This document shows positions 1-15,896 of a stretch of 64,000 nt of DNA, in pieces. Positions within the stretch are counted from its first letter, which is position 1. The number at the start of each line of letters is the position of its first letter. The DNA comes from Escherichia coli (GTDB lineage: Bacteria; Pseudomonadota; Gammaproteobacteria; Enterobacterales; Enterobacteriaceae), in the NCBI RefSeq assembly GCF_016903815.1, contig NZ_CP069974.1. One strand, given 5' to 3'. The notes beneath the pieces were generated by a model. The model searched no databases, was not told the DNA's origin, and saw only the letters and a list, made by a program, of their open reading frames with translations. Both the position numbers and the translations under genes were made by a program.

Positions 1-517
1 CCCGGTACAGCCGGTGGCTGACTGCCAGCATCAGCAGCCCGGCAATGCCGTAACTGGTGCCGGACAAAGGCCCCCACAGGGCCATCAGAAGAATGGCCGC
101 TGCTGTACGCCACCCACTGCGCGTTTCACACCACGTCAGCACCTGTGCCGCCACTGCAAAGGCAAACAGGATATTCCCCTCATACCAGGGAAAGCCGGCC
201 AGATAATATGCGAACTGGGCAATAATTCCCCATCCCCACAGCCGGTTAATGGCCGGTTGCCGGATATGCGCATGACGGGACAGATTCAGCCCCCACACCA
301 GGGCAAACAGCGGAAAGGCTCCTCGCCCGGCCAGAAACATCCATTCCTGCTTCAGCTGGAATATCAGATTGATGTGGTCCAGTACCATCAGCACCAGTGC
401 CACCGTTTTGATGATATCCCGCTGTCCGGGTGACCAGACCAGAAATGACTGCAACCAGGTATCGGTCCGTGCAGCCAGTGAATCGTTACGTGTCGTGTTC
501 GTGTTATCCGTTGTCAT
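1..517 (-). CDS. traX: TraX (F-pilin acetylase), N-terminal part; gene continues beyond window start
   Basis: Minus-strand translation from ATG at 517 reads MTTDNTNTRNDSLAARTDTWLQSF..., matching recalled F TraX; lies just downstream of traI stop as in F. The ORF-track 14..433 (+) ORF is the antisense frame. Confidence 0.75.
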   Translation of the reverse strand, partial: MTTDNTNTTRNDSLAARTDTWLQSFLVWSPGQRDIIKTVALVLMVLDHINLIFQLKQEWMFLAGRGAFPLFALVWGLNLSRHAHIRQPAINRLWGWGIIAQFAYYLAGFPWYEGNILFAFAVAAQVLTWCETRSGWRTAAAILLMALWGPLSGTSYGIAGLLMLAVSHRLYR

Positions 518-536
518 CAGTGTTTGTCTTCCTGTA

Positions 537-2990
537 TCAGTCTCCGCCCAGGGTTTTCTCTTTCTGCAGGTCACGAACCATATCCCGCTCCATCTGCTGC
601 AGACGCTCCTGCAGCAGATTTTCCCGGGCAACCTCCCGGACCGCTTCCCGTTCCCGTTGTGATTCACGCAGCACACTCTCCGGCAGTGCGGTTTCCCGTT
701 CAGAACTGGCAGTCCGGTCACGTTCCTGCCCGGCAATATCCCTGACAGCCAGCTCTGTTTTGCCGTCCGGCAGGTCAGGTTTGTTCTCTGCCATTTTACG
801 GACAATTTCATCTGCGCGACGTTCCGTTTCACGGCGGATGGCCTCTTCAGCCTGCCGCTGTGCCAGCACCTCTGCCGTGACCGGTTCGCCATTTCCGGCC
901 CCCGGCTGGACGCTGCTGTCCGGGATATCCCCCCACACGCGACCACCGGTGATGGCACCGGGATTCCACGGACGACCTTCACCGGCAATTCTTACCACCA
1001 CACCGCTGTCGGGATTATCACGGGCAATCCGGACACCATCCTGCATATTATCAGCCAGCAGGCTCTCTCCGTTACGGCTGCCCTGCAGGGCCACGAACTG
1101 CGCATCCCCGCGGCCTTTCACCCGTCCTTCACCGCTGAATCCCCGCAGCCCGTTTCCGTCATCCGTGGTCAGTGGGTTCAGCCAGATACCGGCGGACCTG
1201 CCGTTACGGTCAAACGCCGGCAGTGCCACATACGGCTGCGGATATTTACGTCCCGGTGCAATAAACCGTGCAGGGCTGTCTCCCCCGGCCAGCCCCGCCT
1301 GACGGAGAACGGCACGGCCTGCCGCCACGTCCCGCAGTTCCCGTGCCGTACTGAACAGCCGCTGCGCATTCATGACCTCCCGGTCCGGTTTCGGCTCAAA
1401 CACATCGTGGGCTGTTCCTTTCTGTACGGCATTGTTAATGGCATCCGTCCAGCCCTGACGGTTATCGGTGTACACCTGCACATGCTGCTTCATACGCGAC
1501 AGGGCCACGTAGGCTGACTCAAAGCCTGCCATCAGTTTCCGGTTACCTTCCGTGCCTTCAAGCGCAATGGCAAAGGTTTCACTTGTCCCCTGCGCACCGT
1601 GGGCGGTGATGGCATAGGCCAGGTCAATATGTTGCTCTGCCCGCTCCTGACCGGGGCGAATCACCCGGGTCTGCTGTCCGTCCGACAGCGTGACACTGTC
1701 ACCGGAAACCGCTGTCACCGTCCAGACGCTGTTGGCCACATAACCGCGCTCCCGGTCACTCTTCGTGAAGCGCATCCGGTCACCGGTTCCCACCCGGATT
1801 TTGTCTGGTGTGTACAGTGTGACACCTTCAGCCACCGCCTCCCGGGGCGAAATCAGCCGCGTGTTACCTTCCGCATCCTCCAGGGTTATCAGCCCGTCAT
1901 CCTTGCTGATACCGGCAATCCGGTGATACACACTATCCACCAGGGCAAGGGCATCCGGGTTATTCTCCCAGGTGGAGAGACGACGCAGTTCTCCGTCACG
2001 TATATTCGCTGTGTTCAGGACAGGCACCATGACCTGCTCTTTGCCCAGCTCACCGGCCTTTTCCCGTGCATCATGAATCATGCTGTTCAGTACGCGCCGG
2101 TCCTCATTCAGGTGCGTGACAATCAGCGTCTGCTCCCGTGCTTCCGGTGTCCTGCCGGTATAGTCGCGGACAATGGCCTCATACAGTGTCATGGGGATAT
2201 CCGGGAAAGCCTCGCCTTTCAGCATCGCCTTCTGCTGCGCTTCTGCCAGTTTCGCTTCCTGGCTGTGACTGAACTCCGTCACGGAGTGCTCCGGTGCCCA
2301 TGCGCCCTCCTGACGGGGAACCTGAGACGGTTTCACACTCTCAAGCCCGGACAGTGCCCTTTCCACATCCCGGTTAATCAGGCTGTATACCGCCTCCCGC
2401 AGTTCCGGCGTCTGACGCACAATCTCCTTCATGATGACCACATCGGCAGCACTGCGCGTCTGCTGCAGACGGAAAGGCTGACCGGGCGCGATGGCCTGCA
2501 GCTGGTCCGTGTCACCACTGGCCACGGCACGACCGCCACCGGCCGCAATCAGGGCGTATGCCCGTGCCATATCGGTATTGCCCACCATTGAGCTCTCATC
2601 GAGCAGGAACAGCGTGTTGCTGAAATCCGGCGTTTCTCCGCTGCGCTGCTGCAGCTGCGTGTCATGCAGAAAGGACGCCAGCGTCTGTGCATCCACGCCG
2701 GCGCTGCGCATCTCACCGACCGCACGGTGCGTGGGCCCCAGCCCCACAACTCGGGGACGCTCACTCGCCGGCAGCATGTTCACGGCTGACATCACCGCCC
2801 GGAACTGTGTGGTCTTACCCACACCGGCATAACCCTGTACCACCGTGAAACGGTCGGACGTTTCCAGTATCATACGGGTGGCGGCACGCTGTCCCGACGT
2901 TAACGTCTCCATGAGTTCGCCGGGTACTCTCTCCATCAACGGCGTGACCGCCTCCTTACCTTCGAGAATATGGCGAAGAATACTTTTTTC
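537..2990 (-). pseudogene. traI: traI 3' fragment (relaxase/helicase C-terminal part), severed by IS26
   Basis: ORF-track 1014-aa ORF matches F TraI C-terminal ~800 aa (from ...EKSILRHILEGKEAVTPLMERVPG... onward); its first ~200 codons run into IS26 and are not TraI. Confidence 0.9.
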
Positions 2991-3810
2991 GGCACTGTTG
3001 CAAATAGTCGGTGGTGATAAACTTATCATCCCCTTTTGCTGATGGAGCTGCACATGAACCCATTCAAAGGCCGGCATTTTCAGCGTGACATCATTCTGTG
3101 GGCCGTACGCTGGTACTGCAAATACGGCATCAGTTACCGTGAGCTGCAGGAGATGCTGGCTGAACGCGGAGTGAATGTCGATCACTCCACGATTTACCGC
3201 TGGGTTCAGCGTTATGCGCCTGAAATGGAAAAACGGCTGCGCTGGTACTGGCGTAACCCTTCCGATCTTTGCCCGTGGCACATGGATGAAACCTACGTGA
3301 AGGTCAATGGCCGCTGGGCGTATCTGTACCGGGCCGTCGACAGCCGGGGCCGCACTGTCGATTTTTATCTCTCCTCCCGTCGTAACAGCAAAGCTGCATA
3401 CCGGTTTCTGGGTAAAATCCTCAACAACGTGAAGAAGTGGCAGATCCCACGATTCATCAACACGGATAAAGCGCCCGCCTATGGTCGCGCGCTTGCTCTG
3501 CTCAAACGCGAAGGCCGGTGCCCGTCTGACGTTGAACACCGACAGATTAAGTACCGGAACAACGTGATTGAATGCGATCATGGCAAACTGAAACGGATAA
3601 TCAACGCCACGCTGGGATTTAAATCCATGAAGACGGCTTACGCCACCATCAAAGGTATTGAGGTGATGCGTGCACTACGCAAAGGCCAGGCCTCAGCATT
3701 TTATTATGGTGATCCCCTGGGCGAAATGCGCCTGGTAAGCAGAGTTTTTGAAATGTAAGGCCTTTGAATAAGACAAAAGGCTGCCTCATCGCTAACTTTG
3801 CAACAGTGCC
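2991..3810 (+). mobile_element. IS26 copy 1 (820 bp, 14-bp terminal inverted repeats GGCACTGTTGCAAA)
   Basis: IR at 2991-3004 and inverted copy at 3797-3810; encloses the 240-aa Tnp26 ORF. Confidence 0.95.
3036..3758 (+). CDS. tnpA: IS26 transposase Tnp26
   Basis: 240-aa ORF MLMELHMNPFKGRHFQRDIILWAV...; identical second copy at 9409..10131. Confidence 0.95.
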   Translation: MLMELHMNPFKGRHFQRDIILWAVRWYCKYGISYRELQEMLAERGVNVDHSTIYRWVQRYAPEMEKRLRWYWRNPSDLCPWHMDETYVKVNGRWAYLYRAVDSRGRTVDFYLSSRRNSKAAYRFLGKILNNVKKWQIPRFINTDKAPAYGRALALLKREGRCPSDVEHRQIKYRNNVIECDHGKLKRIINATLGFKSMKTAYATIKGIEVMRALRKGQASAFYYGDPLGEMRLVSRVFEM

Positions 3811-4765
3811 TTAACAAGTTGTTTGGGTGTTCGAATTTCAACAGGTAAGTTAGTTGCTAGAACCCATGGCTCCTTTGCCGACGCTGAGTAGATTTTAGGT
3901 GACGGGTGGTGACAATGAGTCCGTGTCGAGCGCTGATTTTTTCGGCCTTTAGAGCGAGATTTATACAATAGAATTTGGCATGAGATTGGATTGCTTTTAG
4001 TCAGCCTCTTATAGCCTAAAGTCTTTGAGTGACTAGATGACATATCATGTAAGTTGCTGATAGGTTTCCAGTTTTCCGCTCCTAGGTCTGCATATTGTAC
4101 TTTTCCTCTTACTCGACTTAACCAGTACCAACCCAGCTTCTCAACGGATTTATACCATGGCACTTTAAAGCCAGCATCACTGACAATGAGCGGTGTGGTG
4201 TTACTCGGTAGAATGCTCGCAAGGTCGGCTAGAAATTGGTCATGAGCTTTCTTTGAACATTGCTCTGAAAGCGGGAACGCTTTCTCATAAAGAGTAACAG
4301 AACGACCGTGTAGTGCGACTGAAGCTCGCAATACCATAAGTCGTTTTTGCTCACGAATATCAGACCAGTCAACAAGTACAATGGGCATCGTATTGCCCGA
4401 ACAGATAAAGCTAGCATGCCAACGGTATACAGCGAGTCGCTCTTTGTGGAGGTGACGATTACCTAACAATCGGTCGATTCGTTTGATGTTATGTTTTGTT
4501 CTCGCTTTGGTTGGCAGGTTACGGCCAAGTTCGGTAAGAGTGAGAGTTTTACAGTCAAGTAATGCGTGGCAAGCCAACGTTAAGCTGTTGAGTCGTTTTA
4601 AGTGTAATTCGGGGCAGAATTGGTAAAGAGAGTCGTGTAAAATATCGAGTTCGCACATCTTGTTGTCTGATTATTGATTTTTCGCGAAACCATTTGATCA
4701 TATGACAAGATGTGTATCCACCTTAACTTAATGATTTTTACCAAAATCATTAGGGGATTCATCAG
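3811..4765 (-). mobile_element. Truncated IS10 (outside end plus 5' 955 bp), cut by IS26
   Basis: IS10 outside end CTGATGAATCCCCTAATGATTTTGGTAAAAATCATTAAG on minus strand ending at 4765; Tnp N-terminus MCELDILHDSLYQFCPELHLKRLNSLTLACH... (ORF 3792..4658). Confidence 0.8.
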
Positions 4766-5837
4766 AGCATGATATCAAAACGCTCTGAGCTGCTCGTTCG
4801 GCTATGGCGTAGGCCTAGTCCGTAGGCAGGACTTTTCAAGTCTCGGAAGGTTTCTTCAATCTGCATTCGCTTCGAATAGATATTAACAAGTTGTTTGGGT
4901 GTTCGAATTTCAACAGGTAAGTTAGTTGCTAGAACCCATGGCTCCTTTGCCGACGCTGAGTAGATTTTAGGTGACGGGTGGTGACAATGAGTCCGTGTCG
5001 AGCGCTGATTTTTTCGGCCTTTAGAGCGAGATTTATACAATAGAATTTGGCATGAGATTGGATTGCTTTTAGTCAGCCTCTTATAGCCTAAAGTCTTTGA
5101 GTGACTAGATGACATATCATGTAAGTTGCTGATAGGTTTCCAGTTTTCCGCTCCTAGGTCTGCATATTGTACTTTTCCTCTTACTCGACTTAACCAGTAC
5201 CAACCCAGCTTCTCAACGGATTTATACCATGGCACTTTAAAGCCAGCATCACTGACAATGAGCGGTGTGGTGTTACTCGGTAGAATGCTCGCAAGGTCGG
5301 CTAGAAATTGGTCATGAGCTTTCTTTGAACATTGCTCTGAAAGCGGGAACGCTTTCTCATAAAGAGTAACAGAACGACCGTGTAGTGCGACTGAAGCTCG
5401 CAATACCATAAGCCGTTTTTGCTCACGGATATCAGACCAGTCAACAAGTACAATGGGCATCGTATTGCCCGAACAGATAAAGCTAGCATGCCAACGGTAT
5501 ACAGCGAGTCGCTCTTTGTGGAGGTGACGATTACCTAACAATCGGTCGATTCGTTTGATGTTATGTTTTGTTCTCGCTTTGGTTGGCAGGTTACGGCCAA
5601 GTTCGGTAAGAGTGAGAGTTTTACAGTCAAGTAATGCGTGGCAAGCCAACGTTAAGCTGTTGAGTCGTTTTAAGTGTAATTCGGGGCAGAATTGGTAAAG
5701 AGAGTCGTGTAAAATATCGAGTTCGCACATCTTGTTGTCTGATTATTGATTTTTCGCGAAACCATTTGATCATATGACAAGATGTGTATCCACCTTAACT
5801 TAATGATTTTTACCAAAATCATTAGGGGATTCATCAG
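4766..5837 (-). mobile_element. Second truncated IS10 copy (5' 1072 bp) in direct tandem with the first
   Basis: Same IS10 end at 5837; Tnp N-terminal 322 aa (ORF 4762..5730); near-identical to 3811..4765 with 1072-bp period. Confidence 0.8.
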
Positions 5838-5872
5838 CGTATAGTGTTTTGCAGTTTAGAGGAGATATCGCG

Positions 5873-6733
5873 ATGCATACGCGGAAGGCAATAACGGAGG
5901 CGCTTCAAAAACTCGGAGTCCAAACCGGTGACCTCTTGATGGTGCATGCCTCACTTAAAGCGATTGGTCCGGTCGAAGGAGGAGCGGAGACGGTCGTTGC
6001 CGCGTTACGCTCCGCGGTTGGGCCGACTGGCACTGTGATGGGATACGCGTCGTGGGACCGATCACCCTACGAGGAGACTCTGAATGGCGCTCGGCTGGAT
6101 GACGAAGCCCGCCGTACCTGGCTGCCGTTCGATCCCGCAACAGCCGGGACTTACCGTGGGTTCGGCCTGCTGAATCAATTTCTGGTTCAAGCCCCCGGCG
6201 CGCGGCGCAGCGCGCACCCCGATGCATCGATGGTCGCGGTTGGTCCGCTGGCTGAAACGCTGACGGAGCCTCACGAACTCGGTCACGCCTTGGGGGAAGG
6301 ATCGCCCGTCGAGCGGTTCGTTCGCCTTGGCGGGAAGGCCCTGCTGTTGGGTGCGCCGCTAAACTCCGTTACCGCATTGCACTACGCCGAGGCGGTTGCC
6401 GATATCCCCAACAAACGGTGGGTGACGTATGAGATGCCGATGCTTGGAAGAGACGGTGAAGTCGCCTGGAAAACGGCATCGGATTACGATTCAAACGGCA
6501 TTCTCGATTGCTTTGCTATCGAAGGAAAGCCGGATGCGGTTGAAACTATAGCAAATGCTTACGTGAAGCTCGGTCGCCATCGAGAAGGTGTCGTGGGCTT
6601 TGCTCAGTGCTACCTGTTCGACGCGCAGGACATCGTGACGTTCGGCGTCACCTATCTTGAGAAGCATTTCGGAACCACTCCGATCGTGCCTCCGCACGAG
6701 GCCGTCGAGCGCTCTTGCGAGCCTTCAGGTTAG
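5873..6733 (+). CDS. aac(3)-II: Aminoglycoside 3-N-acetyltransferase AAC(3)-II (gentamicin/tobramycin resistance)
   Basis: 286-aa product MHTRKAITEALQKLGVQTGDLLMVHASLKAIGPVEGG... matches recalled AAC(3)-IIa/IId family; RBS GAGGAG 9 nt upstream. ORF-track start 5849 is an upstream extension. Allele (IIa/IId/IIe) not resolvable by eye. Confidence 0.9.
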   Translation: MHTRKAITEALQKLGVQTGDLLMVHASLKAIGPVEGGAETVVAALRSAVGPTGTVMGYASWDRSPYEETLNGARLDDEARRTWLPFDPATAGTYRGFGLLNQFLVQAPGARRSAHPDASMVAVGPLAETLTEPHELGHALGEGSPVERFVRLGGKALLLGAPLNSVTALHYAEAVADIPNKRWVTYEMPMLGRDGEVAWKTASDYDSNGILDCFAIEGKPDAVETIANAYVKLGRHREGVVGFAQCYLFDAQDIVTFGVTYLEKHFGTTPIVPPHEAVERSCEPSG

Positions 6734-6745
6734 AGGCCGTCGACA

Positions 6746-7288
6746 ATGATAATCTGGATCAACGGACCTTTCGGCGCCGGAAAGACGACGCTCGCTAAGC
6801 GGCTGCGCGATCGGCGTTCCAAATCGCTGATCTTTGACCCCGAGGAAATCGGGTTCGTGGTGAAAGAAACGGTCCCCATGCCAGCGAGCGGAGACTATCA
6901 GGATCTCCCCTTGTGGAGGGGACTTACGATCGCGGCGGTCAGGGAGATTCGAAGGAATTACTCGCAGGACATCATCATCCCAATGACGCTCGTGCACCCG
7001 GACTATCTGACTGAGATACTCGACGGGGTAAGGCGGATCGACGATCAGCTGCTGCACATCTTTCTGACGCTCAACGAGGACCTATTGCGTCACCGGATCG
7101 CGAACCAGACCATGCATCCTGACCCGAATCGAAATGCGGAGATTCGAGAGTGGCGATTAGCGAATGTCGCCCGATGCTTGGCCGCAAGGGAACGGCTTCC
7201 ATGCACAACCCGTGTTCTCGATAGTGGTGCACACACCAGCGATGAACTCGCAGCGATGGTGCTCGACGGAATCGATGGGCGCACCTGA
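6746..7288 (+). CDS. tmrB: Tunicamycin resistance protein TmrB-like ATP-binding protein
   Basis: 180-aa ORF with P-loop GPFGAGKTT; the gene classically linked downstream of aac(3)-II. Confidence 0.85.
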   Translation: MIIWINGPFGAGKTTLAKRLRDRRSKSLIFDPEEIGFVVKETVPMPASGDYQDLPLWRGLTIAAVREIRRNYSQDIIIPMTLVHPDYLTEILDGVRRIDDQLLHIFLTLNEDLLRHRIANQTMHPDPNRNAEIREWRLANVARCLAARERLPCTTRVLDSGAHTSDELAAMVLDGIDGRT

Positions 7289-7381
7289 TCGCCTTCGACG
7301 CCTGCGCAAAGCGTAGCGCGAGGGTGGCGGGCTCACGACCAAACGCCCAGAGGTCGATCATCGCAGGGATGTTTGGCTTTG

Positions 7382-7680
7382 TGGTGCGGACGACGGGACT
7401 CGAACCCGTACTCTCACAGAGAAGCAGATTTTCGTACCACCTCGACTTTCGCCGCCGTCTGATGACGTTCGTGGTCTGGACTGTCCCTTCGCCATTGCCC
7501 GAAGGCTTTAGGCGCCGCCCGTCCAGTCTCTACACCTTCCCCCGAAGGGGCTTGGCTCGGGATTGGCTTAGGGTATTGCCCGTTAGCGTTCCCCGACTTT
7601 GAGCGGTTCTACTCCGCGGATTTCCCCGCGGGCACTCCAATTTTAAAGTCTGCTGCGTCTACCGATTTCGCCACGTCCGC
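7382..7680 (-). tRNA. tRNA-Leu(UAA) gene interrupted in the anticodon loop by a ~213-nt group I intron
   Basis: Minus strand: 5' exon GCGGACGTGGCGAAATCGGTAGACGCAGCAGACTT (acceptor, class II D arm, anticodon stem, C32-U34); 3' exon AAAATCTGCTTCTCTGTGAGAGTACGGGTTCGAGTCCCGTCGTCCGCACCA (rest of loop, long variable arm, T arm GGTTCGAGTCC, acceptor exactly complementary to GCGGACG, encoded CCA). Exons roughly 7680..7646 and 7432..7382. Confidence 0.7.
7433..7645 (-). ncRNA. Group I intron (tRNA anticodon-loop type, resembling the small cyanobacterial/Azoarcus tRNA introns)
   Basis: Follows exon U34, ends in G; contains core-like segments CCGAGCCAAGC...GAAGGTGTAGAGACTGGACGG...CCTAAAGC resembling the recalled Azoarcus tRNA-Ile intron; no ORF. 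Boundaries +/- 2 nt. Confidence 0.6.
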
Positions 7681-8262
7681 CTTTTTTCGCCGTTCCTAGC
7701 GCTCGTGCGATGCACCTATGTTGCACCTAGCGCCGAATCGTTCTTCGTCATCCTGAAAAACCACGTCTCCTAAAGCCTTGCATAGCTTATCTTTTCTCCA
7801 CCACGAACTTTTTTGTGGGATGGTAGAAAAAAAGACTTTTTAAGTCCGCTGGCTTGCCAGGCCTTGTTAGCTTGTACGGTCATGGTTATCGGGTAAAGAA
7901 TATTGACGGCATCGCTGGTGTCGGTGGCTGAAAAGCCGGCTCCCATCAGGGCAATAGCCATTTCAGATGCAGGCGTACAGGGCAATGGTCAACAGCTACA
8001 GCCTGTCTGACGATTCCGGCGTCATGGCTGCGGCGGCTATCACGCATTTTTTGTTCGGTCAGGCGGTGTTTTCGTACCTCAATGGTTGGAGCGTGTTGAT
8101 CGGACCTGGTACAGGTTTGGACAGCACGGGCTGCAAATACGCAAGGGATTTAATGGGCCTGGTGGCGTTCACGGCTTTTATCGTGACGTTTCTGTTCAGG
8201 GGCTACTCATAATCTCGTGGCTCGGCGGTTCCCGGCACACCATGACAGTAAGGAAGGACCCT

Positions 8263-9390
8263 GTGTCTCAACTCTCCCAGCTTCGAAGCCCCGCCGCCGT
8301 GCAGGCTGCCATCGATGAGTTCGTGCAACTGGGCCGCACGAAATTCCTGGCGCGCCACGGCTACGGCAAGTCCCGCGACTTCCTGGTACGTGATCCGAAG
8401 ACCGGCACCGATTGCGATTCCAAGGCCATCGCCGGTGTGGCCTTCGGCAAGCAATTTCCCGAGCAGGGCCCGCTCACTGCTGACAGCTTCTCCGGTGGCG
8501 AGGCGACCGTCGTTCCGGCGCTGACGCGGCTCGGGTTTCGCATCATTCGCATCGGCGAAGACTGGTCCGAAGAAGAGGTCCTGGCCACGGTCGAAGACTA
8601 TTTCGACATGCTGCGTGCCGAGGCGGCTGGGGAGCCGTACAACAAGTCCGAGCACAACCAGGCACTGCGCCAACTGCTGAACGGTCGCAGCAAGTCTTCA
8701 GTCGAGCTCAAGCACCAGAACATTAGCGCCGTACTCGATGCCCTGGGCCTGCCCTATATCAACGGCTACAAGCCACGCGGCAACAGCCAACTGCTGCTGC
8801 GTAAATCCGTACACGCCTACGTTCTGGAACATCAGCAGACGGTCGGCGCTCTTGTCGATGCCCTGGAGGAGGTAAAACTTCCGGGTGACAAAACCTACCG
8901 AGCGGCTTTGGTAGAACCACCCGCCCGTGAAGTGCTTGTGCGTACCCCGGCATCTCTACGGCAACGCCTACCGCGAAAGTTCGATTATGCCGCTCGCGAT
9001 GAAGCCAACCGCAAGCTGGGCCGGGCAGGGGAGCAGTGGGTGATTGGCTACGAACAGCAACGCCTGACCGAGCTCGGCCACCCAGAGCTTTTTCAGCGGC
9101 TGGATTGGGTGTCCGACACCCAGGGAGACGGTGCGGGGTTCGACATCCTGTCGTTCGAAGAGGACGCCCATGAGCGCTTCATCGAGGTGAAAACCACCAA
9201 TGGCGGGGTAGGCTCGTCTTTCTTGGTCAGCCACAACGAACTCGAATTCTCCAAGGAGGCGGGCGATCAATTCCATCTGTATCGCGTGTTCCAGTTTCGG
9301 GACGGTCCGCGCCTGTTCACGCTACCCGGCGACCTCAGCCAACATGTGCATCTCAAGCCGACGGGCACTGTTGCAAATAGTCGGTGGTGA
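8263..9390 (+). CDS. DUF3883-type protein with PD-(D/E)xK-like C-terminal nuclease fold; 3' end fused into IS26
   Basis: ORF in frame of track ORF 8086..9390; likely start GTG 8263 (RBS AGGAAGG at 8251) or ATG 8242. C-terminal GFDILSFEEDAHERFIEVKTT...LYRVFQF recalled as DUF3883; last ~9 codons derive from the IS26 inverted repeat. Confidence 0.6.
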   Translation: MSQLSQLRSPAAVQAAIDEFVQLGRTKFLARHGYGKSRDFLVRDPKTGTDCDSKAIAGVAFGKQFPEQGPLTADSFSGGEATVVPALTRLGFRIIRIGEDWSEEEVLATVEDYFDMLRAEAAGEPYNKSEHNQALRQLLNGRSKSSVELKHQNISAVLDALGLPYINGYKPRGNSQLLLRKSVHAYVLEHQQTVGALVDALEEVKLPGDKTYRAALVEPPAREVLVRTPASLRQRLPRKFDYAARDEANRKLGRAGEQWVIGYEQQRLTELGHPELFQRLDWVSDTQGDGAGFDILSFEEDAHERFIEVKTTNGGVGSSFLVSHNELEFSKEAGDQFHLYRVFQFRDGPRLFTLPGDLSQHVHLKPTGTVANSRW

Positions 9391-10183
9391 TAAACTTATC
9401 ATCCCCTTTTGCTGATGGAGCTGCACATGAACCCATTCAAAGGCCGGCATTTTCAGCGTGACATCATTCTGTGGGCCGTACGCTGGTACTGCAAATACGG
9501 CATCAGTTACCGTGAGCTGCAGGAGATGCTGGCTGAACGCGGAGTGAATGTCGATCACTCCACGATTTACCGCTGGGTTCAGCGTTATGCGCCTGAAATG
9601 GAAAAACGGCTGCGCTGGTACTGGCGTAACCCTTCCGATCTTTGCCCGTGGCACATGGATGAAACCTACGTGAAGGTCAATGGCCGCTGGGCGTATCTGT
9701 ACCGGGCCGTCGACAGCCGGGGCCGCACTGTCGATTTTTATCTCTCCTCCCGTCGTAACAGCAAAGCTGCATACCGGTTTCTGGGTAAAATCCTCAACAA
9801 CGTGAAGAAGTGGCAGATCCCACGATTCATCAACACGGATAAAGCGCCCGCCTATGGTCGCGCGCTTGCTCTGCTCAAACGCGAAGGCCGGTGCCCGTCT
9901 GACGTTGAACACCGACAGATTAAGTACCGGAACAACGTGATTGAATGCGATCATGGCAAACTGAAACGGATAATCAACGCCACGCTGGGATTTAAATCCA
10001 TGAAGACGGCTTACGCCACCATCAAAGGTATTGAGGTGATGCGTGCACTACGCAAAGGCCAGGCCTCAGCATTTTATTATGGTGATCCCCTGGGCGAAAT
10101 GCGCCTGGTAAGCAGAGTTTTTGAAATGTAAGGCCTTTGAATAAGACAAAAGGCTGCCTCATCGCTAACTTTGCAACAGTGCC
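9364..10183 (+). mobile_element. IS26 copy 2, direct orientation relative to copy 1
   Basis: IRs at 9364-9377 and 10170-10183; tnpA ORF 9409..10131 identical to copy 1. Confidence 0.95.
9409..10131 (+). CDS. tnpA: IS26 transposase Tnp26 (copy 2)
   Basis: Identical 240-aa ORF. Confidence 0.95.
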   Translation: MLMELHMNPFKGRHFQRDIILWAVRWYCKYGISYRELQEMLAERGVNVDHSTIYRWVQRYAPEMEKRLRWYWRNPSDLCPWHMDETYVKVNGRWAYLYRAVDSRGRTVDFYLSSRRNSKAAYRFLGKILNNVKKWQIPRFINTDKAPAYGRALALLKREGRCPSDVEHRQIKYRNNVIECDHGKLKRIINATLGFKSMKTAYATIKGIEVMRALRKGQASAFYYGDPLGEMRLVSRVFEM

Positions 10184-12918
10184 CTTTTTTCTGCCTCATA
10201 CGACGCACGGGAAACCAGCAGACCTGTGCCATAGCCTTTTGCCACATCCACATACAGTAAGTCACCGCGTTTTATCTGCGCATTGATTTCCCCTCCCAGT
10301 TCAGTAAAACCGGTTCCTTCTGCAGCAAACGACTTCGCCTCTGTCAGCAGGTCCACCATGCTGAAGGCCAGGTTTTTACTTTCCAGCACAGGAAGGGCCA
10401 GATGAATGGCCTGCTGTGCCGGCGTGTGAAGCCCGGCTTTCTGCAGACTGATAGCGGTTTCCAGCAATGTCTCACCGGCACGCGCCTTTATCTGATCAGA
10501 AACCACCGTAAAGGAGGGATGGCGGGCAAGTTTTTCCGCAGTACGGGGTTCATCCAGCGAGGAATACAGCCGGACATCACGACCACTGCGGGCCAGACCG
10601 TTCAGGGTCGCGTTGTCCATCGCCATCTGTGTGACGGAGGCAAAAACCGTCGCACTGTCGCTGACGGAATGCCCGGGCGTTTCCACCCAGCCGTTCTCCA
10701 GCTTCAGTGCCGTGAATGGTGAATCAGCCACAGGCAGGGTGGCCGGTTCAGCCCGCCCCGGCACAACAACCGTCATCGCATCTTCACTGACGGATGCCAC
10801 CTGCAGGCGGTCACCGCCGGAGACGCGGAGTCCGGGAATTTTCCCTGTCACCCTCAGTCGCTCGCCGTCTGCCACCGGCATTTTTTCCGGCCGGAACAGC
10901 GACCAGCTGCTGTCCAGGGAGGAAATACGCACCACCTGCGTTTCGCCCTGCGCATCCCGCAGGTTCAGGCTGTGACTCTGCGCTGTCACCCGGTCTATCA
11001 CATAGCGGTCATGACTGCGTGTCTCCGGGTTCCACTGCTCCATCACCATCCCCGGTCGGTACATATCCCGCAGATAACGGCTCCGGCTGTCCAGCCAGAC
11101 CGGTGACAGTGCAGTCATGGTCACCTCAGGGTGTCCGAGCACGCCCTGCGTTTTCAGCTCACTGCGAATGGCCTCTGTCAGTATGGCCTGTTCCCGTACC
11201 CCGCTGACCTGTGCCACGCTCTCTTCTCCGGCTTTCACGCTGGCCGCAAAATCTCCGGCCAGCCGGGCATAGCGGACATTACGGTCCGGTTCACTGATGA
11301 TGGTGGCCGGTCGCTGTTCTCCCCCCTGCCAGCGATATGTGTTCACCCCGGCATCCTTCATGGCCATCAGTGCACTGCCTGTACCGGTTCGCTGCCCGCT
11401 GTCGGTTATCAGGACCTGTACGTTATGACGTGCGGCACCATCCAGCAGGGTTAACGTCTCTTTCAGGGAGAGTTTTTCGCCCTGGTCGACGATAACGGTA
11501 CTGCCCGGCGGGAAGGCCATGCCTTCCAGCAACTGACGACGTCCGGTTATCAGTTCACCGGACAGCCGTTCATCCTGCTTCAGGTTCATCTGCGAGCGAC
11601 GGTCAGCAGCGATAATCTGCACCTCCCGCCCCTGCTCCCGGGCCATCATGACCAGTTCAGCCACCCGCTCACGCTGCCCGGCTGCACCGCCCTGCCCGGA
11701 CACAATGGCCAGCGACGGGCGATCCTGTGCCAGAACACTGACGGCATCGCTGTAACCGGCCGTCCGGGGGACACTTTTCTCCGGATGTACGGTCACCCGG
11801 TTCTGTTTCATGATGTCACGACTGAGTGCCCGGACTGACAGCTCATCGAGCACATGAATCCCGGACGTGAACAGCCCCTTCTCACGATCGAGGGGGATAA
11901 GCTGCTCACGGCTGATGGCCTCATCGATACCGGCGCGTGCCCGTTCAATCACACCATTTTCCGGCGGCAGTATGCCGACCGTCCTGGCCAGCACGTCCGT
12001 ATACGTGAACTGCACTTTTCGTTCACTTAATCCGGCAATGGCCTGTGTCACCGCCTGCTGCACATCCGGCCCGTCCTGTGAAGCAGGCCCGGGCGCCTGC
12101 GTGCGGATCTCCGCACGCTGATCCGCCGCGTCACGATATGCCCGGATGTCGAACCCGGTTTCCTTCAGCGTCTGCATCCATTCAGCCATTCTGACTTCAG
12201 GATCGACGTGCTGTTTGGATTTACGCGTATCCAGTGCCGCCACATCCCGGGATTTCAGCGAGGCGTCTTCACCGACGGCCTCCCGGATAGCCTGTGAGCG
12301 TCCGGAGAAGGCTTCCACCGGTACGCCCGGCATCTCCCACATACCGTGCTTACCGACCACTTCGGTTTCATAACCCAGCGCCTCAACGCGCTGACGTAAC
12401 TCACTCTGATATATTTTCCCGAACGCAATCCGGTTCGCGAGCACGTTCTCGGAAAATCCGGTTTTCCCCACTTTGTCACTGCTCAGTGTCTTCCATTCGC
12501 CGTTATGCTGCGTGACATTAGCCACCACCACATGCGTGTGTAACTGTGGGTCCTGATCGCGACTGGTGTCATGGTTAAACAGTGCCATCACCAGATTACC
12601 GGTCAGCACCGTTTCTGACTGTCCGTCCGTCATCACCCGTGTGGAAGCCAGCGCCTCCACCTGACGGACAGCAAAATCCACAGCCTGGTTATGTGCATCA
12701 ATAAGACGTTTATCCCCCCCGAGCATGGCCATCATGGAGACACTTTTGGGGGCGGAGAAGGTCAGGTCGTAGCCGGGACGATGCTTATTACTGCCATCCT
12801 GCATGCGGCTTAAATCCGCCCCGTCCGGCAGCCTGCCCTCCAGAAGACGGGTAAAAACATCCTTATCGACGCTGCCCTGCAGCCCAAGCTGTTCAGCCCC
12901 CTGAACGGAAAAAAGCAC
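10184..12918 (-). pseudogene. traI: traI 5' fragment (relaxase domain), lacking the first ~37 codons and severed by IS26
   Basis: 917-aa ORF matches F TraI from ...[27 protein letters not shown]... to ...SYEAEK; recalled N-terminus MMSIAQVRSAGSAGNYYTDKDNYY (catalytic tyrosines) is absent. Confidence 0.9.
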
Positions 12919-13072
12919 GGGTGTTCATGACGTCAAACAGCGTGGCCGCCGCTTTCTCACCGTAGATATCTTCCAGCTGGGCATAGGACTGGATACCAAA
13001 CACATAACAGCCACCGAACTTACGGGCTTCCGGCAGGATCTCCACCAGGTCCGGCAGTTTGTGTAACGTGGG
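12919..13072 (-). pseudogene. traD: traD internal remnant (coupling protein fragment)
   Basis: Minus-strand translation ...[52 protein letters not shown], a recalled F TraD segment, wedged between traU and traI remnants. Confidence 0.6.
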
Positions 13073-13238
13073 TACCCTGGCTGACTTTGATACTGCCCAG
13101 CGAGAGCGGGAAAATACAGCTCCAGCAGATATCCGTGATCGGGTTTACAAAACGCCCCTCACAGGCAGAATCCGCAGACGCCGCAGGGACATGACCGGCG
13201 AGAAGGAATAACATCAGCAGCCACAGTCTTCGCTTCAT
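13073..13238 (-). pseudogene. traU: traU 5' remnant (first ~55 codons)
   Basis: [55 protein letters not shown] then frame leaves TraU. Confidence 0.7.
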
Positions 13239-13561
13239 TTTCTGCCCTCCTCTGCCGGAATAAATTCCACCTTCAGGAAGCGATCGCCGGGAACGGCGCT
13301 CACCCGTGCCGGGACCTGATCAATGCCGAGGCGCTGGCAGAGCACACCGTTCTGGTCAAAGTAAATACGGCTGTCCAGCGCTTTCTGCATCTCCGGGATA
13401 CTGCCCTGCACGAGGATAATTTTGCTCTCCAGTGTGGGCGGCGTCTGGCGTTTCATCCAGGCCACCTGCGCCGGATCATCGCCATTGATGAAATACAGCG
13501 TCTGGTTAAAAGGAACATACTGCAGCGGATTCATCACTTCACCCTGACGGGCAAACACCCG
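13235..13561 (-). pseudogene. traW: traW 3' remnant (C-terminal ~108 codons)
   Basis: ...FARQGEVMNPLQYVPFNQTLYFINGDDPAQVAWMKRQTPPTLESKIILVQGSIPEMQKALDSRIYFDQNGVLCQRLGIDQVPARVSAVPGDRFLKVEFIPAEEGRK; N-terminal part and trbI missing. Confidence 0.7.
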
Positions 13562-13568
13562 CCCTTCG

Positions 13569-15896
13569 TTATCCCGGATACAGCTGGTTGTATTTTGCGA
13601 ACTCCTTCGCACTCTGTTTGAGGATAATTTTGTAGGAGGAGTTACCCCATGCCGCACGGGCCGCACTGGAGGCCTTGTCAGAGTCAAAGTCGACGATGTT
13701 CTGTGTGATGGTGATATAAGCACCGGTATGACGACGGGCGGTACGGTAACCTTTCTCAATAAACTCACCGACCTTGTAATTTTTGAAGTCCAGCAGACGC
13801 CAGCCTTCATCAATGACGTTCAGTTTCTTGAGGTTACGCGGCGTGCGGTACATCCTGTTCTCGATGTAGATAATCAGGGAGAACATCACCGCAACCAGCA
13901 GTGACGGACGGTCTTCCAGTCCGCCCAGCTCCAGCACCACCATTTTTGCGTCATCCCGCAGGGACGGCTCATCAGAGTTAAAATACTGACCGTAAGTGCC
14001 GTTGGCAGTGTACTGGTCAAGCAGCACAATCATTTCGTCCAGACGGCTGCGGATAGTCGGTGACCCGGCATACTGCTCGCTGTCACTGGCGTTTTTCAGG
14101 AAATCCACCACGTCATCAATACGTGCCCTGTTCTCTTTGGCCAGCCAGGAGGCCCTGACCGCCTGCAGCAGCAGACCTTCATGCACTTCATCCAGGTTAC
14201 CGTTGGGGCTGGCCATCACTGACAACTGGTCACGGACACGCTCCGCTGACTGGTCGATATCGGTGATATTCGCAAACGGGTTAAAACGCAGGGTTTCACC
14301 GTCCAGATATACGCCACCCATGTTCTCACACAGGGACTTGTAGCCATCCCCCATGTCGAACACCACGGCAAAGCCCCCGGAGTCCAGCACGCTGCGGATA
14401 AGGGGCTGTATCAGTCCGGTTTTACCGGCCCCGGAGGTGCCACAGACCGCCATGTTGTAGTTGGTGTTATTCATCCCCCGGAAGAAAATATCGATAAACG
14501 CCAGCTGGTTACGGTAGGTGGGTGCCAGCAGACCTGCCGGTGTCAGGGGGTTATCCGCCACTAACGGCATCAGGTTGGCAACATTAAAGCTCTCTGCGCG
14601 CTGAACCACACCGGCCTCTTTCAGCTGTTTAAACAGCCCTTTCCCGGCCATAAAGGGCAGGCAGGTCAGGAAATTGCGCATGTGGTTAAAGCGCGGTGAA
14701 ATCAGCTCAAAACCGTTTTTACGGAAGCTGTTCAGGATGTCCTGCTCCACTTCCAGTGCCGTTTCATTATTGTCCTTGCAGAAGGCTGTGATGTTGAGGA
14801 AGTAGGACACGACAGAAGACTGACCGGAGCCCAGCCGCTGACGCAGTTCCCCCCACTCCTTCGCCTCTTTCTCCACGGACGGAAACCATTTGGCATAGGA
14901 GGTCTTCGACTTTTTCTCCAGGTCCATGTACTTCAGGTTGGCTTCGCTGTGGGTTTTCACCTGGTCTTCCACCACCAGAGTCAGCGTCAGGATGAACGGA
15001 CAGGAGATGGACAGTTCCGGGTTCAGCAGGTTGCTGTAGTTGTCGGCCATATTCCACAGGAAGGCGATTTCCGGGTTACGGGCCAGATGGAAATTCAGGA
15101 TGCGGGCCGTGCTGTTCCTGCCGTTCTCACGCAGGCCCAGCGTCAGGTAATCAGCCCGGACTTTCAGGTCAAAACTGTCCTCCACACACTGATAATTCAG
15201 ATCAGAATACGGGTCCAGCTGACGTCTTTTCGGGTACAGGGAGTCCGGGTTATGATTAATCATCTCCCCGACAATATCGATAAAGGCCTGTGCATCCACC
15301 GTCTGTGTGGCGATACTGGCCCCCTGTAACGACGCCCGGATGATTTTCACCAGGTTTTCCATTTCCAGAATGTCAGCCCGGCTTTTTTTCTTCGAGGGAG
15401 AACAGTACGAGAAGAATACCCGGTAATGGCGCAGGGTCAGGGGCAGATTCATCCCCTCCGGCAGCGGAAACTGTGTCGCTGCCGCGTTCATATAATAGGC
15501 ACGGGTAATGGCGTTAAACCGTTCAGCCTGTTCACCGGACCAGGAGAACTCACGCAGCCCGTATTCAATTCTGTCACCAACAAGCTGGCTGGACTTCAGA
15601 TGGATGCAGAACGGCACTCCGCGTGGCAGTTTGGTGCGCAGCATGTGGTCGAGCGCCTCCACAATGGACTCATTCGCCCCATTGATGGGAATGGCTTCCA
15701 GCATAAAGCCCATCGTGGTGTCATTCATGAACAGACCGGACTCCTGGTTGTAATCACGGTACGGCAGCAGACGGCTGAACTGCGGGAAGCTCATTTCGCC
15801 CAGAACTTCATTGGCCTTTGCGGATTCGTCAGGCAGTTTCAGTGCTGTGACGAGGGAGTTAACCGCCTGAGTGACGGCCTCAAGTGGGTTATTCAC
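13569..15896 (-). CDS. traC: TraC (VirB4-like type IV secretion ATPase), C-terminally shortened (775 aa vs ~875 in F)
   Basis: Starts MNNPLEAVTQAVNSLVTALKLPDE...; ends ...KEFAKYNQLYPG at a deletion junction with traW. Confidence 0.85.
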   Translation of the reverse strand: MNNPLEAVTQAVNSLVTALKLPDESAKANEVLGEMSFPQFSRLLPYRDYNQESGLFMNDTTMGFMLEAIPINGANESIVEALDHMLRTKLPRGVPFCIHLKSSQLVGDRIEYGLREFSWSGEQAERFNAITRAYYMNAAATQFPLPEGMNLPLTLRHYRVFFSYCSPSKKKSRADILEMENLVKIIRASLQGASIATQTVDAQAFIDIVGEMINHNPDSLYPKRRQLDPYSDLNYQCVEDSFDLKVRADYLTLGLRENGRNSTARILNFHLARNPEIAFLWNMADNYSNLLNPELSISCPFILTLTLVVEDQVKTHSEANLKYMDLEKKSKTSYAKWFPSVEKEAKEWGELRQRLGSGQSSVVSYFLNITAFCKDNNETALEVEQDILNSFRKNGFELISPRFNHMRNFLTCLPFMAGKGLFKQLKEAGVVQRAESFNVANLMPLVADNPLTPAGLLAPTYRNQLAFIDIFFRGMNNTNYNMAVCGTSGAGKTGLIQPLIRSVLDSGGFAVVFDMGDGYKSLCENMGGVYLDGETLRFNPFANITDIDQSAERVRDQLSVMASPNGNLDEVHEGLLLQAVRASWLAKENRARIDDVVDFLKNASDSEQYAGSPTIRSRLDEMIVLLDQYTANGTYGQYFNSDEPSLRDDAKMVVLELGGLEDRPSLLVAVMFSLIIYIENRMYRTPRNLKKLNVIDEGWRLLDFKNYKVGEFIEKGYRTARRHTGAYITITQNIVDFDSDKASSAARAAWGNSSYKIILKQSAKEFAKYNQLYPG

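Follow-up and report, generated by a model that had tools for sequence, protein, structure and literature searches.

An intact 8-bp target duplication around an IS26-v1-bounded aac(3)-IId module in traI of an Escherichia coli IncF plasmid

Introduction

What does an 8-bp repeat around two directly oriented copies of IS26 prove about the way in which a resistance segment came to lie in a plasmid transfer gene? The question is raised by an Escherichia coli IncF plasmid, analysed here over a window of 64,000 nucleotides, in which traI is interrupted by a gentamicin-resistance module. An earlier reading made from the letters of the DNA (the sequence-only reading) explained the structure by one insertion of the complete unit into an intact traI and not by an IS26-mediated deletion. 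In the present study we have examined the junctions, the state of the target gene, the cargo and the related public plasmids, and we find that the components of this claim fare differently.

Results

The unit occupies positions 2991-10183 (7,193 bp) and consists of a cargo of 5,553 bp between two IS26 copies (Table 1). As the sequence-only reading had described, these copies are directly oriented and bracket the resistance cargo; both are 820 bp long, with 0 mismatches between them. The left inverted repeat is the reverse complement of the right one in both copies, and the terminus GGCACTGTTGCAAA occurs in the window only at 2991, 3810 (minus strand), 9364 and 10183 (minus strand), against a chance expectation of 0.03 matches. 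The transposase Tnp26 is a single DDE protein of 234 aa, which scores 278.2 bits with the NCBIfam IS6 model NF033587 (cut-off 125) and is annotated on identical DNA as WP_001067858.1. Length and inverted repeats, an IS6 DDE transposase and an 8-bp duplication are all present, as in the IS26 family. Both copies differ from standard IS26 at 3 nt (positions 459, 613 and 614), giving G184N, in exact agreement with the description of IS26-v1, which is defined by three nucleotide changes relative to IS26, two of them causing G184N (PMC9412624).

Table 1. Features of the traI insertion and its surroundings, in window positions.
Feature	Coordinates	Strand	Remarks
traI 3' portion, codons ~942 to stop	537..2990	-	ends at left duplication copy
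Left target-duplication copy CTTTTTTC	2983..2990		traI codons E940-K941-S942 on minus strand
IS26-v1, left copy	2991..3810	+	820 bp, perfect 14-bp terminal inverted repeats; tnp26 3054-3758, G184N
ISVsa5/IS10-like fragment 1	3811..4765	-	955 bp, truncated by left IS26; IS4-family transposase match
ISVsa5/IS10-like fragment 2	4766..5837	-	1,072 bp; outer IS end 5825-5837, shortly before aac(3)-IId
aac(3)-IId, aminoglycoside (gentamicin) 3-N-acetyltransferase	5873..6733	+	NCBIfam AAC(3)-II, 541.5 bits (cut-off 480)
tmrB-like AAA ATPase, tunicamycin-resistance homologue	6746..7288	+	WP_000587837.1 'AAA family ATPase' on identical DNA
tRNA-Leu(UAA), passenger, split by 213-nt group I intron	7382..7680	-	exon 1 7680-7646, intron 7645-7433, exon 2 7432-7382
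DUF3883-domain ORF	8263..9363	+	WP_014837927.1 on identical DNA; 3' end truncated by right IS26
IS26-v1, right copy	9364..10183	+	identical to left copy
Right target-duplication copy CTTTTTTC	10184..10191		directly outside right IS26
traI 5'-proximal portion	10184..12908	-	without first 100 nt of gene
traD remnant	12903..13074	-	172 bp, between two deletions

The 8 bp immediately outside each end are identical, as had been claimed, and the repeat shared by the flanks is exactly 8 bp long, neither 7 nor 9. Counting both strands, the window contains this 8-mer 12 times where 3 are expected (~1e-4 per position), so that a chance agreement at both ends is very unlikely. In-silico excision of the unit together with one repeat copy leaves an open minus-strand frame reading LLVSRASYEAEKSILRHILEGKEAV, in line with the continuous TraI frame of the sequence-only reading. 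That reading had also proposed alignment to an uninterrupted traI, with a reference devoid of CTTTTTTC or flanks other than contiguous traI speaking against it. Neither was found: the flanks are contiguous traI, and each uninterrupted reference (CP015086, CP024863 and the diverged allele of p109) holds a single CTTTTTTC at the site. Window positions 1-2990 correspond to L001 1611-4600 of CP015086 and positions 10184-12908 to L001 4593-7317, with an overlap of 8 bp; against CP024863 (AR_0015) the identity of the flanks is 100% (2,990 nt) and 99.97% (3,455 nt), again with an 8-bp overlap, and this plasmid contains the reconstructed empty site letter for letter. The repeat is thus confirmed as a genuine target duplication in traI, around an IS26-bounded unit that has the structure of a pseudo-compound transposon. 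Elements of this type move when one IS forms a cointegrate and the IS copies then recombine, or as a translocatable unit; the occurrence of the unit in at least 3 other contexts (see below) and its duplication in traI bear on this indirectly. The junction k-mers AAGAATACTTTTTTCGGCACTGTTGCAAATAG and TTGCAACAGTGCCCTTTTTTCTGCCTCATACG mark this insertion.

Because the flanks are contiguous traI sequence, both outer junctions are untouched by IS26-mediated adjacent deletion, and the insertion was followed by no loss of flanking traI DNA; the earlier exclusion of a deletion holds at both ends. Two independent IS26 insertions, or an intramolecular transposition of the inversion type, were rejected, since the two IS26 share one orientation and the 8-mers outside them repeat, also in the same orientation, a single contiguous target. 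The match to IS26 of pTLYA-1, '158 bp away', was considered as a nearby hotspot and was likewise rejected: in that plasmid an IS26-v1 lies in traI, 1,238 bp of the gene are deleted and there is no duplication, whereas the window has an intact one.

The part of the claim that failed is the intact target. The traI start of CP015086 lies at L001 7417, hence the window gene is 100 nt short, and the missing stretch covers the catalytic tyrosines Y16/Y17/Y23/Y24 of the reference. The gene into which IS26 went is therefore contiguous across the site but not otherwise intact, lacking its start codon and the relaxase tyrosines, and the matching part in CP020496 is annotated 'missing N-terminus and C-terminus'. 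The 3' portion is 99.3% identical to the annotated traI of CP015086 and 100% identical to CP024863, and an ORF at 537..3581 extends from it into IS26. Most of traD-traC is deleted in the window plasmid. The traI scar and the traD'/traU'/traW'/traC' scars are common to the window plasmid and to its empty-site sister CP024863, whose backbone shows 100% identity with the window outside three group II introns. Thus the loss of the traI 5' end and the tra deletions most likely predate the insertion, and the host F-type plasmid is predicted to have been non-transferable already before it.

In the cargo, the segments 3811-4765 and 4883-5837 of the two ISVsa5/IS10-like fragments are 99.8% identical, and RefSeq labels DNA identical to the first 'ISVsa5 family transposase, incomplete'. 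The acetyltransferase belongs to the AAC(3)-II family both by its score above the cut-off and by allele identity, with an AMRFinder 100% call for aac(3)-IId on identical DNA in CP020496; the gene adjoining aac(3)-IId has been called tmrB (PMC7249450). The DUF3883 reading frame continues into the right IS26. The cargo also holds an unannotated tRNA-Leu gene split by an intron. A default ARAGORN run on the cargo gave no tRNA, and the gene surfaced only after the Rfam Intron_gpI signal in the region 7382-7680, which covers the full model with an E value of 6.6e-8 and, at 36.8 bits, lies under the gathering score of 50; once the exons are joined, ARAGORN reports a tRNA-Leu(taa) of 86 nt. No paper linking tmrB to a group I intron was found in the literature searched.

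The same 7,193-bp unit, with the same inner junctions and without the duplication, is present in pAMA1167-NDM-5 (CP024805, 7,190 of 7,193 nt identical), pE16EC0715-1 (CP088521) and p1OXA77 (CP087571). There it lies inside the IS26 arrays of IncF resistance regions and its right IS26 is standard, whereas in the window it is isolated in traI, carries the duplication and is bounded by two v1 copies. The module elsewhere usually has IS26-v1 on its left and standard IS26 on its right, and at least 80% of the cargo is carried by about 345 plasmids. In the closest empty-site relative, CP024863, the module is part of that plasmid's own resistance region, which is rich in IS26, and lies between blaTEM-1-IS26-v1 and IS26-Tn5403.

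Both outer junctions, together with the duplication and the decayed tra region, recur in CP020496, CP020519, pMB9880_1 (CP103763) and p98210 (CP173527), where the interior measures 4,909, 24,285 or 51,810 bp as against 7,193 bp in the window. Neither the exact configuration of the window nor a lone IS26 at the traI site was found in PLSDB (72,556 plasmids) or in the 5,426 complete genomes of E. coli searched, and no paper in the literature searched describes this traI insertion or names the unit. In CP020496 the right IS26 has removed 2,284 bp, and the resistance region is without mph(A), sul2-strAB and one blaTEM-1 copy, with its blaTEM-1/TnAs3 block inverted; in CP103763 the left IS26 has removed 52 bp. 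To the right of the cargo at the traI site, CP103763 and CP173474 carry IS26 of the standard type, in the arrangement that is usually inherited. A 17-kb mph(A)-sul2-strAB-blaTEM-1 segment is shared by CP103763 and CP173527; at the 5' junction in traI it ends in IS26-v1. Each junction IS26-v1 of these two plasmids retains one of its resistance-region neighbours, in one case blaTEM-1 and in the other the cargo. A phylogeny of backbone SNPs gave no signal for ordering the 4.9-, 7.2-, 24- and 52-kb forms (1 private SNP in 42,809 shared positions), the remaining backbone differences among the compared plasmids falling in repeated DNA. A structural tree from group II intron insertions was dropped: these are present in pMB9272_2 and absent in pMB9880_1, from strains 18 core SNPs apart, so that homing is fast, can recur independently and makes the introns an unreliable marker.

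The plasmids of E. coli FCI54 and FCI55 carry an IS26 at the identical traI position and in the same orientation, with G184N but with G at 459. Their traI differs from the window allele at 32 of 1,500 adjacent nt and matches exactly an allele that is uninterrupted elsewhere; the inner side of their IS26 adjoins unrelated DNA.

Discussion

The duplication, the empty site, the identical direct IS copies, the occurrence of the unit elsewhere and the earlier tra deletions are the direct basis of our proposal. The structure very probably goes back to one IS26 copy-in event in traI, in a target already decayed, with an interior that varies among relatives. Tnp26 of an IS26-v1 borne by a donor would attack the 8 bp GAAAAAAG at traI codons 940-942 in an IncF plasmid (FII/FIA/FIB), the target being an already dead traI within a decayed transfer region. 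Copy-in, that is replicative cointegration, would duplicate both IS26 and the 8 bp, placing donor DNA with the widespread aac(3)-IId-tmrB module between direct IS26-v1 copies flanked by CTTTTTTC. Both outer junctions have stayed in place since then; the interior has, in relatives, been reshaped by IS26-mediated or homologous recombination. Both the donor origin and the chemistry of copy-in are inferred, the latter from published work on IS26.

An intact duplication around an IS26 pair shows one copy-in and no loss of flank; it does not establish the present interior as the DNA that was inserted. The single insertion of the sequence-only reading thus stands as one copy-in event, and the arrival of 7,193 bp in one piece is not demonstrated, since relatives with the same junctions hold interiors of other lengths. 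A duplication around a direct IS26 pair is equally expected from a larger donor later trimmed, or from a lone IS26 joined by a translocatable unit (mechanisms in PMC7885326).

A larger donor may quite plausibly have come first, although we hold this reading with less than even confidence. An IS26 array of ~23.5 kb (IS26-v1-cargo-IS26-mph(A)...sul2-strAB...blaTEM-1), as in pMB9880_1, would have entered traI, or, in a variant, the IS26-v1 between blaTEM-1 and the cargo would have acted by intramolecular copy-in followed by re-fusion; recombination of the DUF3883-adjoining IS26 with the IS26-v1 at the traI 5' junction would then leave 7,193 bp. The neighbours of the junction IS26-v1 in CP103763 and CP173527 are the signature expected from replicative transposition of that IS, and an ancestor resembling CP103763 would give the resistance region of CP020496 in three steps of IS26 recombination. 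For the IS left by the deletion to be v1 throughout, the crossover must lie left of position 459, as in about half of cases. This course needs an extra deletion step, however, and the 52-bp loss is private to CP103763, which is therefore not itself the ancestor; nor is there a usable phylogeny to support it, with 1 private SNP in 42.8 kb and intron insertions unreliable as marker.

A strict one-step event is about as plausible, in which a circular translocatable unit of 6,373 bp (one IS26-v1 and the 5,553-bp cargo) was copied into traI. It needs the fewest steps and automatically yields two identical IS26-v1, in place of the usual v1-left/standard-right pair; it agrees with the lack of a lone-IS26 intermediate in the collections searched, and the forms of CP020496 (-2,284 bp) and CP103763 (-52 bp) can both be derived from that of the window. 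Nevertheless the standard IS26 right of the cargo in CP103763/CP173474 and the 17-kb segment common to CP103763/CP173527 must then be secondary and partly parallel, and the intact traI that formed part of this reading is contradicted.

That a lone IS26-v1 arrived first, whether by cointegration with subsequent resolution or by copy-in within one molecule followed by re-fusion, with the cargo following through the targeted conservative reaction, is unlikely. With an IS26 already present this reaction is reported to be ~1,000-fold more frequent than copy-in, and it creates no new duplication (PMC7885326), and the variable interiors of the relatives agree with it; on the other hand it requires an additional rare event, and no record of the lone element at the site came from the same plasmids and genomes. 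An origin without transposition (chance 8-mers, an assembly artefact, or separate IS26 insertions or deletions) can be practically dismissed: the T-rich 8-mer is somewhat over-represented in the window, but independent complete assemblies (CP015086, CP024863) show the empty site with its exact overlap, four other independently assembled plasmids have the same junctions, and two separate insertions would each have their own duplication.

The IS26 of FCI54/FCI55 lies in a diverged allele, hence identical junctions do not always mean identity by descent. It is conceivable, though doubtful, that CTTTTTTC at traI codons 940-942 is a recurrent IS26 target and that FCI54/FCI55 represent an independent insertion; a homologous crossover inside the final 51 bp would be the other explanation. 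If the target were recurrent, the choice of target by IS26 would be less random than assumed, with relaxase genes of F plasmids repeatedly inactivated there.

The junction pair marks a small international lineage of multiresistant IncF plasmids, predicted to be non-conjugative, from Boston, Houston and Alexandria, and is thus useful for tracking. Within it, the gentamicin-resistance module has probably been relocated, moved or copied (the window being 64 kb only), from the main resistance region to the backbone, where the traI insertion offers a second site for growth of IS26 arrays; relatives hold up to 52 kb there.

Comparison with known elements

The insertion is an ordinary, already-sequenced kind of event with a common gentamicin-resistance module. 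No Tn number for an IS26-aac(3)-IId-tmrB-IS26 unit was found in the literature searched. Like Tn4352, Tn6023 and Tn2680 (PMC7986276), the unit has two direct IS26 copies around a resistance segment and an 8-bp duplication; unlike them, it carries aac(3)-IId-tmrB and passenger DNA. TnMB1860 (PMC10591226), an IS26 translocatable unit, also pairs an aac(3)-II gene with tmrB, but differs in its aac(3)-IIe allele, its ISKpn11 neighbours and its chromosomal location. The element, its cargo and the mechanism are thus already known, and public records already contain the insertion site.

Results

An insertion with an 8-bp target duplication in traI

Across the 64-kb window the 14-bp terminal repeat of IS26 has four matches, at 2991(+), 3810(-), 9364(+) and 10183(-), against a chance expectation of 0.03. 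The two IS26 elements, of 820 bp each, lie in the same direction without a single base difference between them, and the span from one to the other (2991-10183) is 7,193 bp. Both ends of this unit are flanked by CTTTTTTC (2983-2990 and 10184-10191), the shared stretch being exactly 8 bp; counting both strands, the whole window has 12 occurrences of this 8-mer, about 1e-4 per position. The unit and repeats described in the sequence-only reading were thus all recovered where it had placed them. The duplicated bases belong to traI codons E940-K941-S942, with the Walker A motif of the helicase some 50 codons further downstream, and removal in silico of the unit and one copy of CTTTTTTC reopens the minus-strand frame (...SYEAEKSILRHILEG...).

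The alignment of the flanks to an uninterrupted traI, proposed in that reading, was run three times (CP015086, CP024863 and p109) and gave a single CTTTTTTC in each case. In the CP015086 locus (L001), where traI is full-length, window 1-2990 corresponds to 1611-4600 and window 10184-12908 to 4593-7317, the flanks overlapping by exactly the 8 bp. Identity to CP024863 (E. coli AR_0015) is 100% over 2,990 nt and 99.97% over 3,455 nt of flank, also with an 8-bp overlap, and the reconstructed empty site with its one CTTTTTTC is an exact substring of that plasmid; in p109, which carries a diverged traI allele, the 8-mer is likewise single. Since all three empty sites show one copy, the target duplication is genuine and both outer junctions have kept their traI DNA in full, in agreement with the earlier claim of an insertion without IS26-mediated deletion.

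The recipient gene was, however, not the intact traI of that reading. The gene starts at L001 7417, so that its first 100 nt, encoding Tyr16/17/23/24, the relaxase catalytic tyrosines of the F-plasmid literature, are absent from the window. A deletion of about 0.85 kb took the traI start together with the traD 3' end, with a 6-bp microhomology (GAACGG) at 12903-12908. The transfer region at 12903-15896 is badly decayed (see table). An identical set of tra scars is present in five complete public records, including CP024863, and precise excision is not known for IS26. Because CP024863 combines the scars with an uninterrupted site, the simplest order is tra deletions followed by IS26 insertion, and on this order the transfer system would already have been dead when the unit arrived.

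Features of the window
Feature	Position	Strand	Remarks
ISVsa5/IS10-like fragments (2)	3811-5837		955 + 1,072 bp; first truncated by left IS26
aac(3)-IId	in unit		541.5 bits (cut-off 480); AMRFinder 100% on identical DNA
tmrB-like ATPase	in unit		
Passenger DNA	in unit		~1 kb
Split tRNA-Leu(UAA) gene	7382-7680	minus	exon 1 7680-7646, intron 7645-7433, exon 2 7432-7382
DUF3883 ORF	in unit		truncated by right IS26
traD remnant	12903-13074		172 bp; joined to traI via the 6-bp microhomology
traU and traW fragments	~13047-13582		
traC, truncated	13575-15896		
Group II intron, 2.34 kb, ltrA WP_012372796 type (3)	25822-28163, 37607-39948, 43278-45619		

Cargo and IS26 variant

The two ISVsa5/IS10-like fragments differ by 2 SNPs (4341 and 4356) and are arranged head-to-tail with a period of 1,072 bp, the outer IS end (4753-4765) meeting internal position ~1072 of the next copy. 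Their number varies among relatives, since the window has two and the AR_0015 plasmid three. Downstream of tmrB lies a passenger tRNA-Leu(UAA) gene in which a 213-nt group I intron separates U34 from A35. The intron covers the full Rfam Intron_gpI model with E 6.6e-8, and its 36.8 bits fall short of the gathering score, which is 50. Splicing of the exons in silico gives an 86-nt tRNA-Leu(taa) with a CCA end. Annotation of the split gene was absent from the RefSeq records examined; presumably it is present in hundreds of plasmids with the aac(3)-IId-tmrB module, and it offers a pointer to the source organism of that module.

IS26-v1 (Tnp26 G184N) has been reported as a more active form. Both IS26 copies of the unit differ from standard IS26 at positions 459, 613 and 614, resulting in Tnp26 G184N, as has been described for IS26-v1 (PMC9412624). 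With the NCBIfam IS6 model (cut-off 125) the transposase reaches 278 bits.

Relatives sharing the traI junctions

Among 5,426 complete E. coli genomes, the left junction (2990/2991) occurs in eight and the right one (10183/10184) in four; four records carry both (CP020496, CP020519, CP103763 and CP173527), while CP103523 and CP173474 carry the left one alone. CTTTTTTC is kept at every junction present, the IS26 copies at the junctions being v1 and the internal ones mostly standard. The exact 7,193-bp form was not found at this traI site among 72,556 plasmids and these genomes. In CP020496 and CP020519 (Boston) 4,909 bp separate the junctions, the right IS26 having deleted window 7080-9363 and cut tmrB short; CP020496 is collinear with the entire window except for these 2,284 bp. 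pMB9880_1 (CP103763, Houston) has 24,285 bp between the junctions and has lost an additional 52 bp to the left IS26; its cargo is followed by a standard IS26, mph(A)-mrx-mphR, IS6100, sul2-strAB and a blaTEM-1/TnAs3 block, after which IS26-v1 forms the traI 5' junction. In p98210 (CP173527, Alexandria) the distance is 51,810 bp, backbone DNA included.

Compared with CP024863 and CP103763, the backbone of the window shows 100% identity except for three 2.34-kb group II introns, which sit in repeats within the leading region and are missing from both. Most mismatches to CP020496 are located in the same repeats. A further, different group II intron occupies ~34.4-36.3 kb.

An IS26 also occupies the position of window 2990/2991, in the same orientation, in a diverged traI allele on plasmids of E. 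coli FCI54 (L024, NZ_JBYGYS010000002, at 14081) and FCI55. It has G184N, yet G at position 459; over the adjacent 1,500 nt of traI the allele differs from the window at 32 positions and matches the uninterrupted p109 allele throughout. Its inner side is unrelated DNA, with no right junction. Either an independent insertion into these 8 bp or a crossover in the final 51 bp may account for it.

Discussion

The published copy-in reaction joins two molecules by direct IS26 copies with a duplication around the insertion, a lone IS26 arising only by later recombination, whereas the targeted conservative reaction between two IS26 is ~1,000-fold more frequent and leaves no duplication (PMC7885326; PMC7986276). 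As a direct pair with flanking duplication is the copy-in end product, one such event very probably gave rise to the present structure. The sequence-only reading is correct as observation and partly so as interpretation: its single insertion may stand as one copy-in event, but the duplication is silent on the size of the donor. In empty-site CP024863 the resistance region holds the module, with blaTEM-1-IS26-v1 on one side of it and IS26-Tn5403 on the other, which makes the lineage's own resistance region the probable donor.

Single-step entry of a translocatable unit of 6,373 bp fits and is the simplest route, v1 at both ends following automatically. Insertion of a larger IS26 array, trimmed afterwards, fits as well and finds support in the relatives: each junction IS in CP103763 and CP173527 retains one usual neighbour, the cargo of CP103763 and CP173474 has a standard IS26 on its right, and three IS26 recombination steps from such an ancestor would yield the CP020496 resistance region. 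An intramolecular copy-in by the IS26-v1 that lies between blaTEM-1 and the cargo would lead to an equivalent outcome. We leave the one-step and array routes unranked, since the backbone offers one private SNP in 42.8 kb and intron presence is an unsafe marker for ordering relatives. A lone IS26 later targeted by the unit would also fit the structure, but no intermediate was found in the 72,556 plasmids and 5,426 genomes.

IS26-v1, the pseudo-compound architecture, the cargo, the mechanism and this insertion site are already in public records. The insertion is an ordinary one; it serves to mark the lineage and to recall how much, and how little, a duplication proves.

At least 80% of the cargo is present in ~345 plasmids, and Klebsiella and Enterobacter plasmids hold a 7,247-bp variant of the unit. 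The 7,193-bp structure itself recurs in pAMA1167-NDM-5 (7,190/7,193 nt identical), pE16EC0715-1 and p1OXA77, where it lies within IS26 arrays without the duplication seen here. Among five further copies compared, four have v1 on the left and standard IS26 on the right; v1 at both ends is therefore unusual. In pTLYA-1 (L026, NZ_CP137163; duck E. coli) an IS26-v1 at L026 1761-2580, within traI, adjoins a 1,238-bp deletion (window 1584-2821) and has no target duplication (GTTTCACT vs CACCGGCA), in contrast to the present unit with its duplication and whole flanks.
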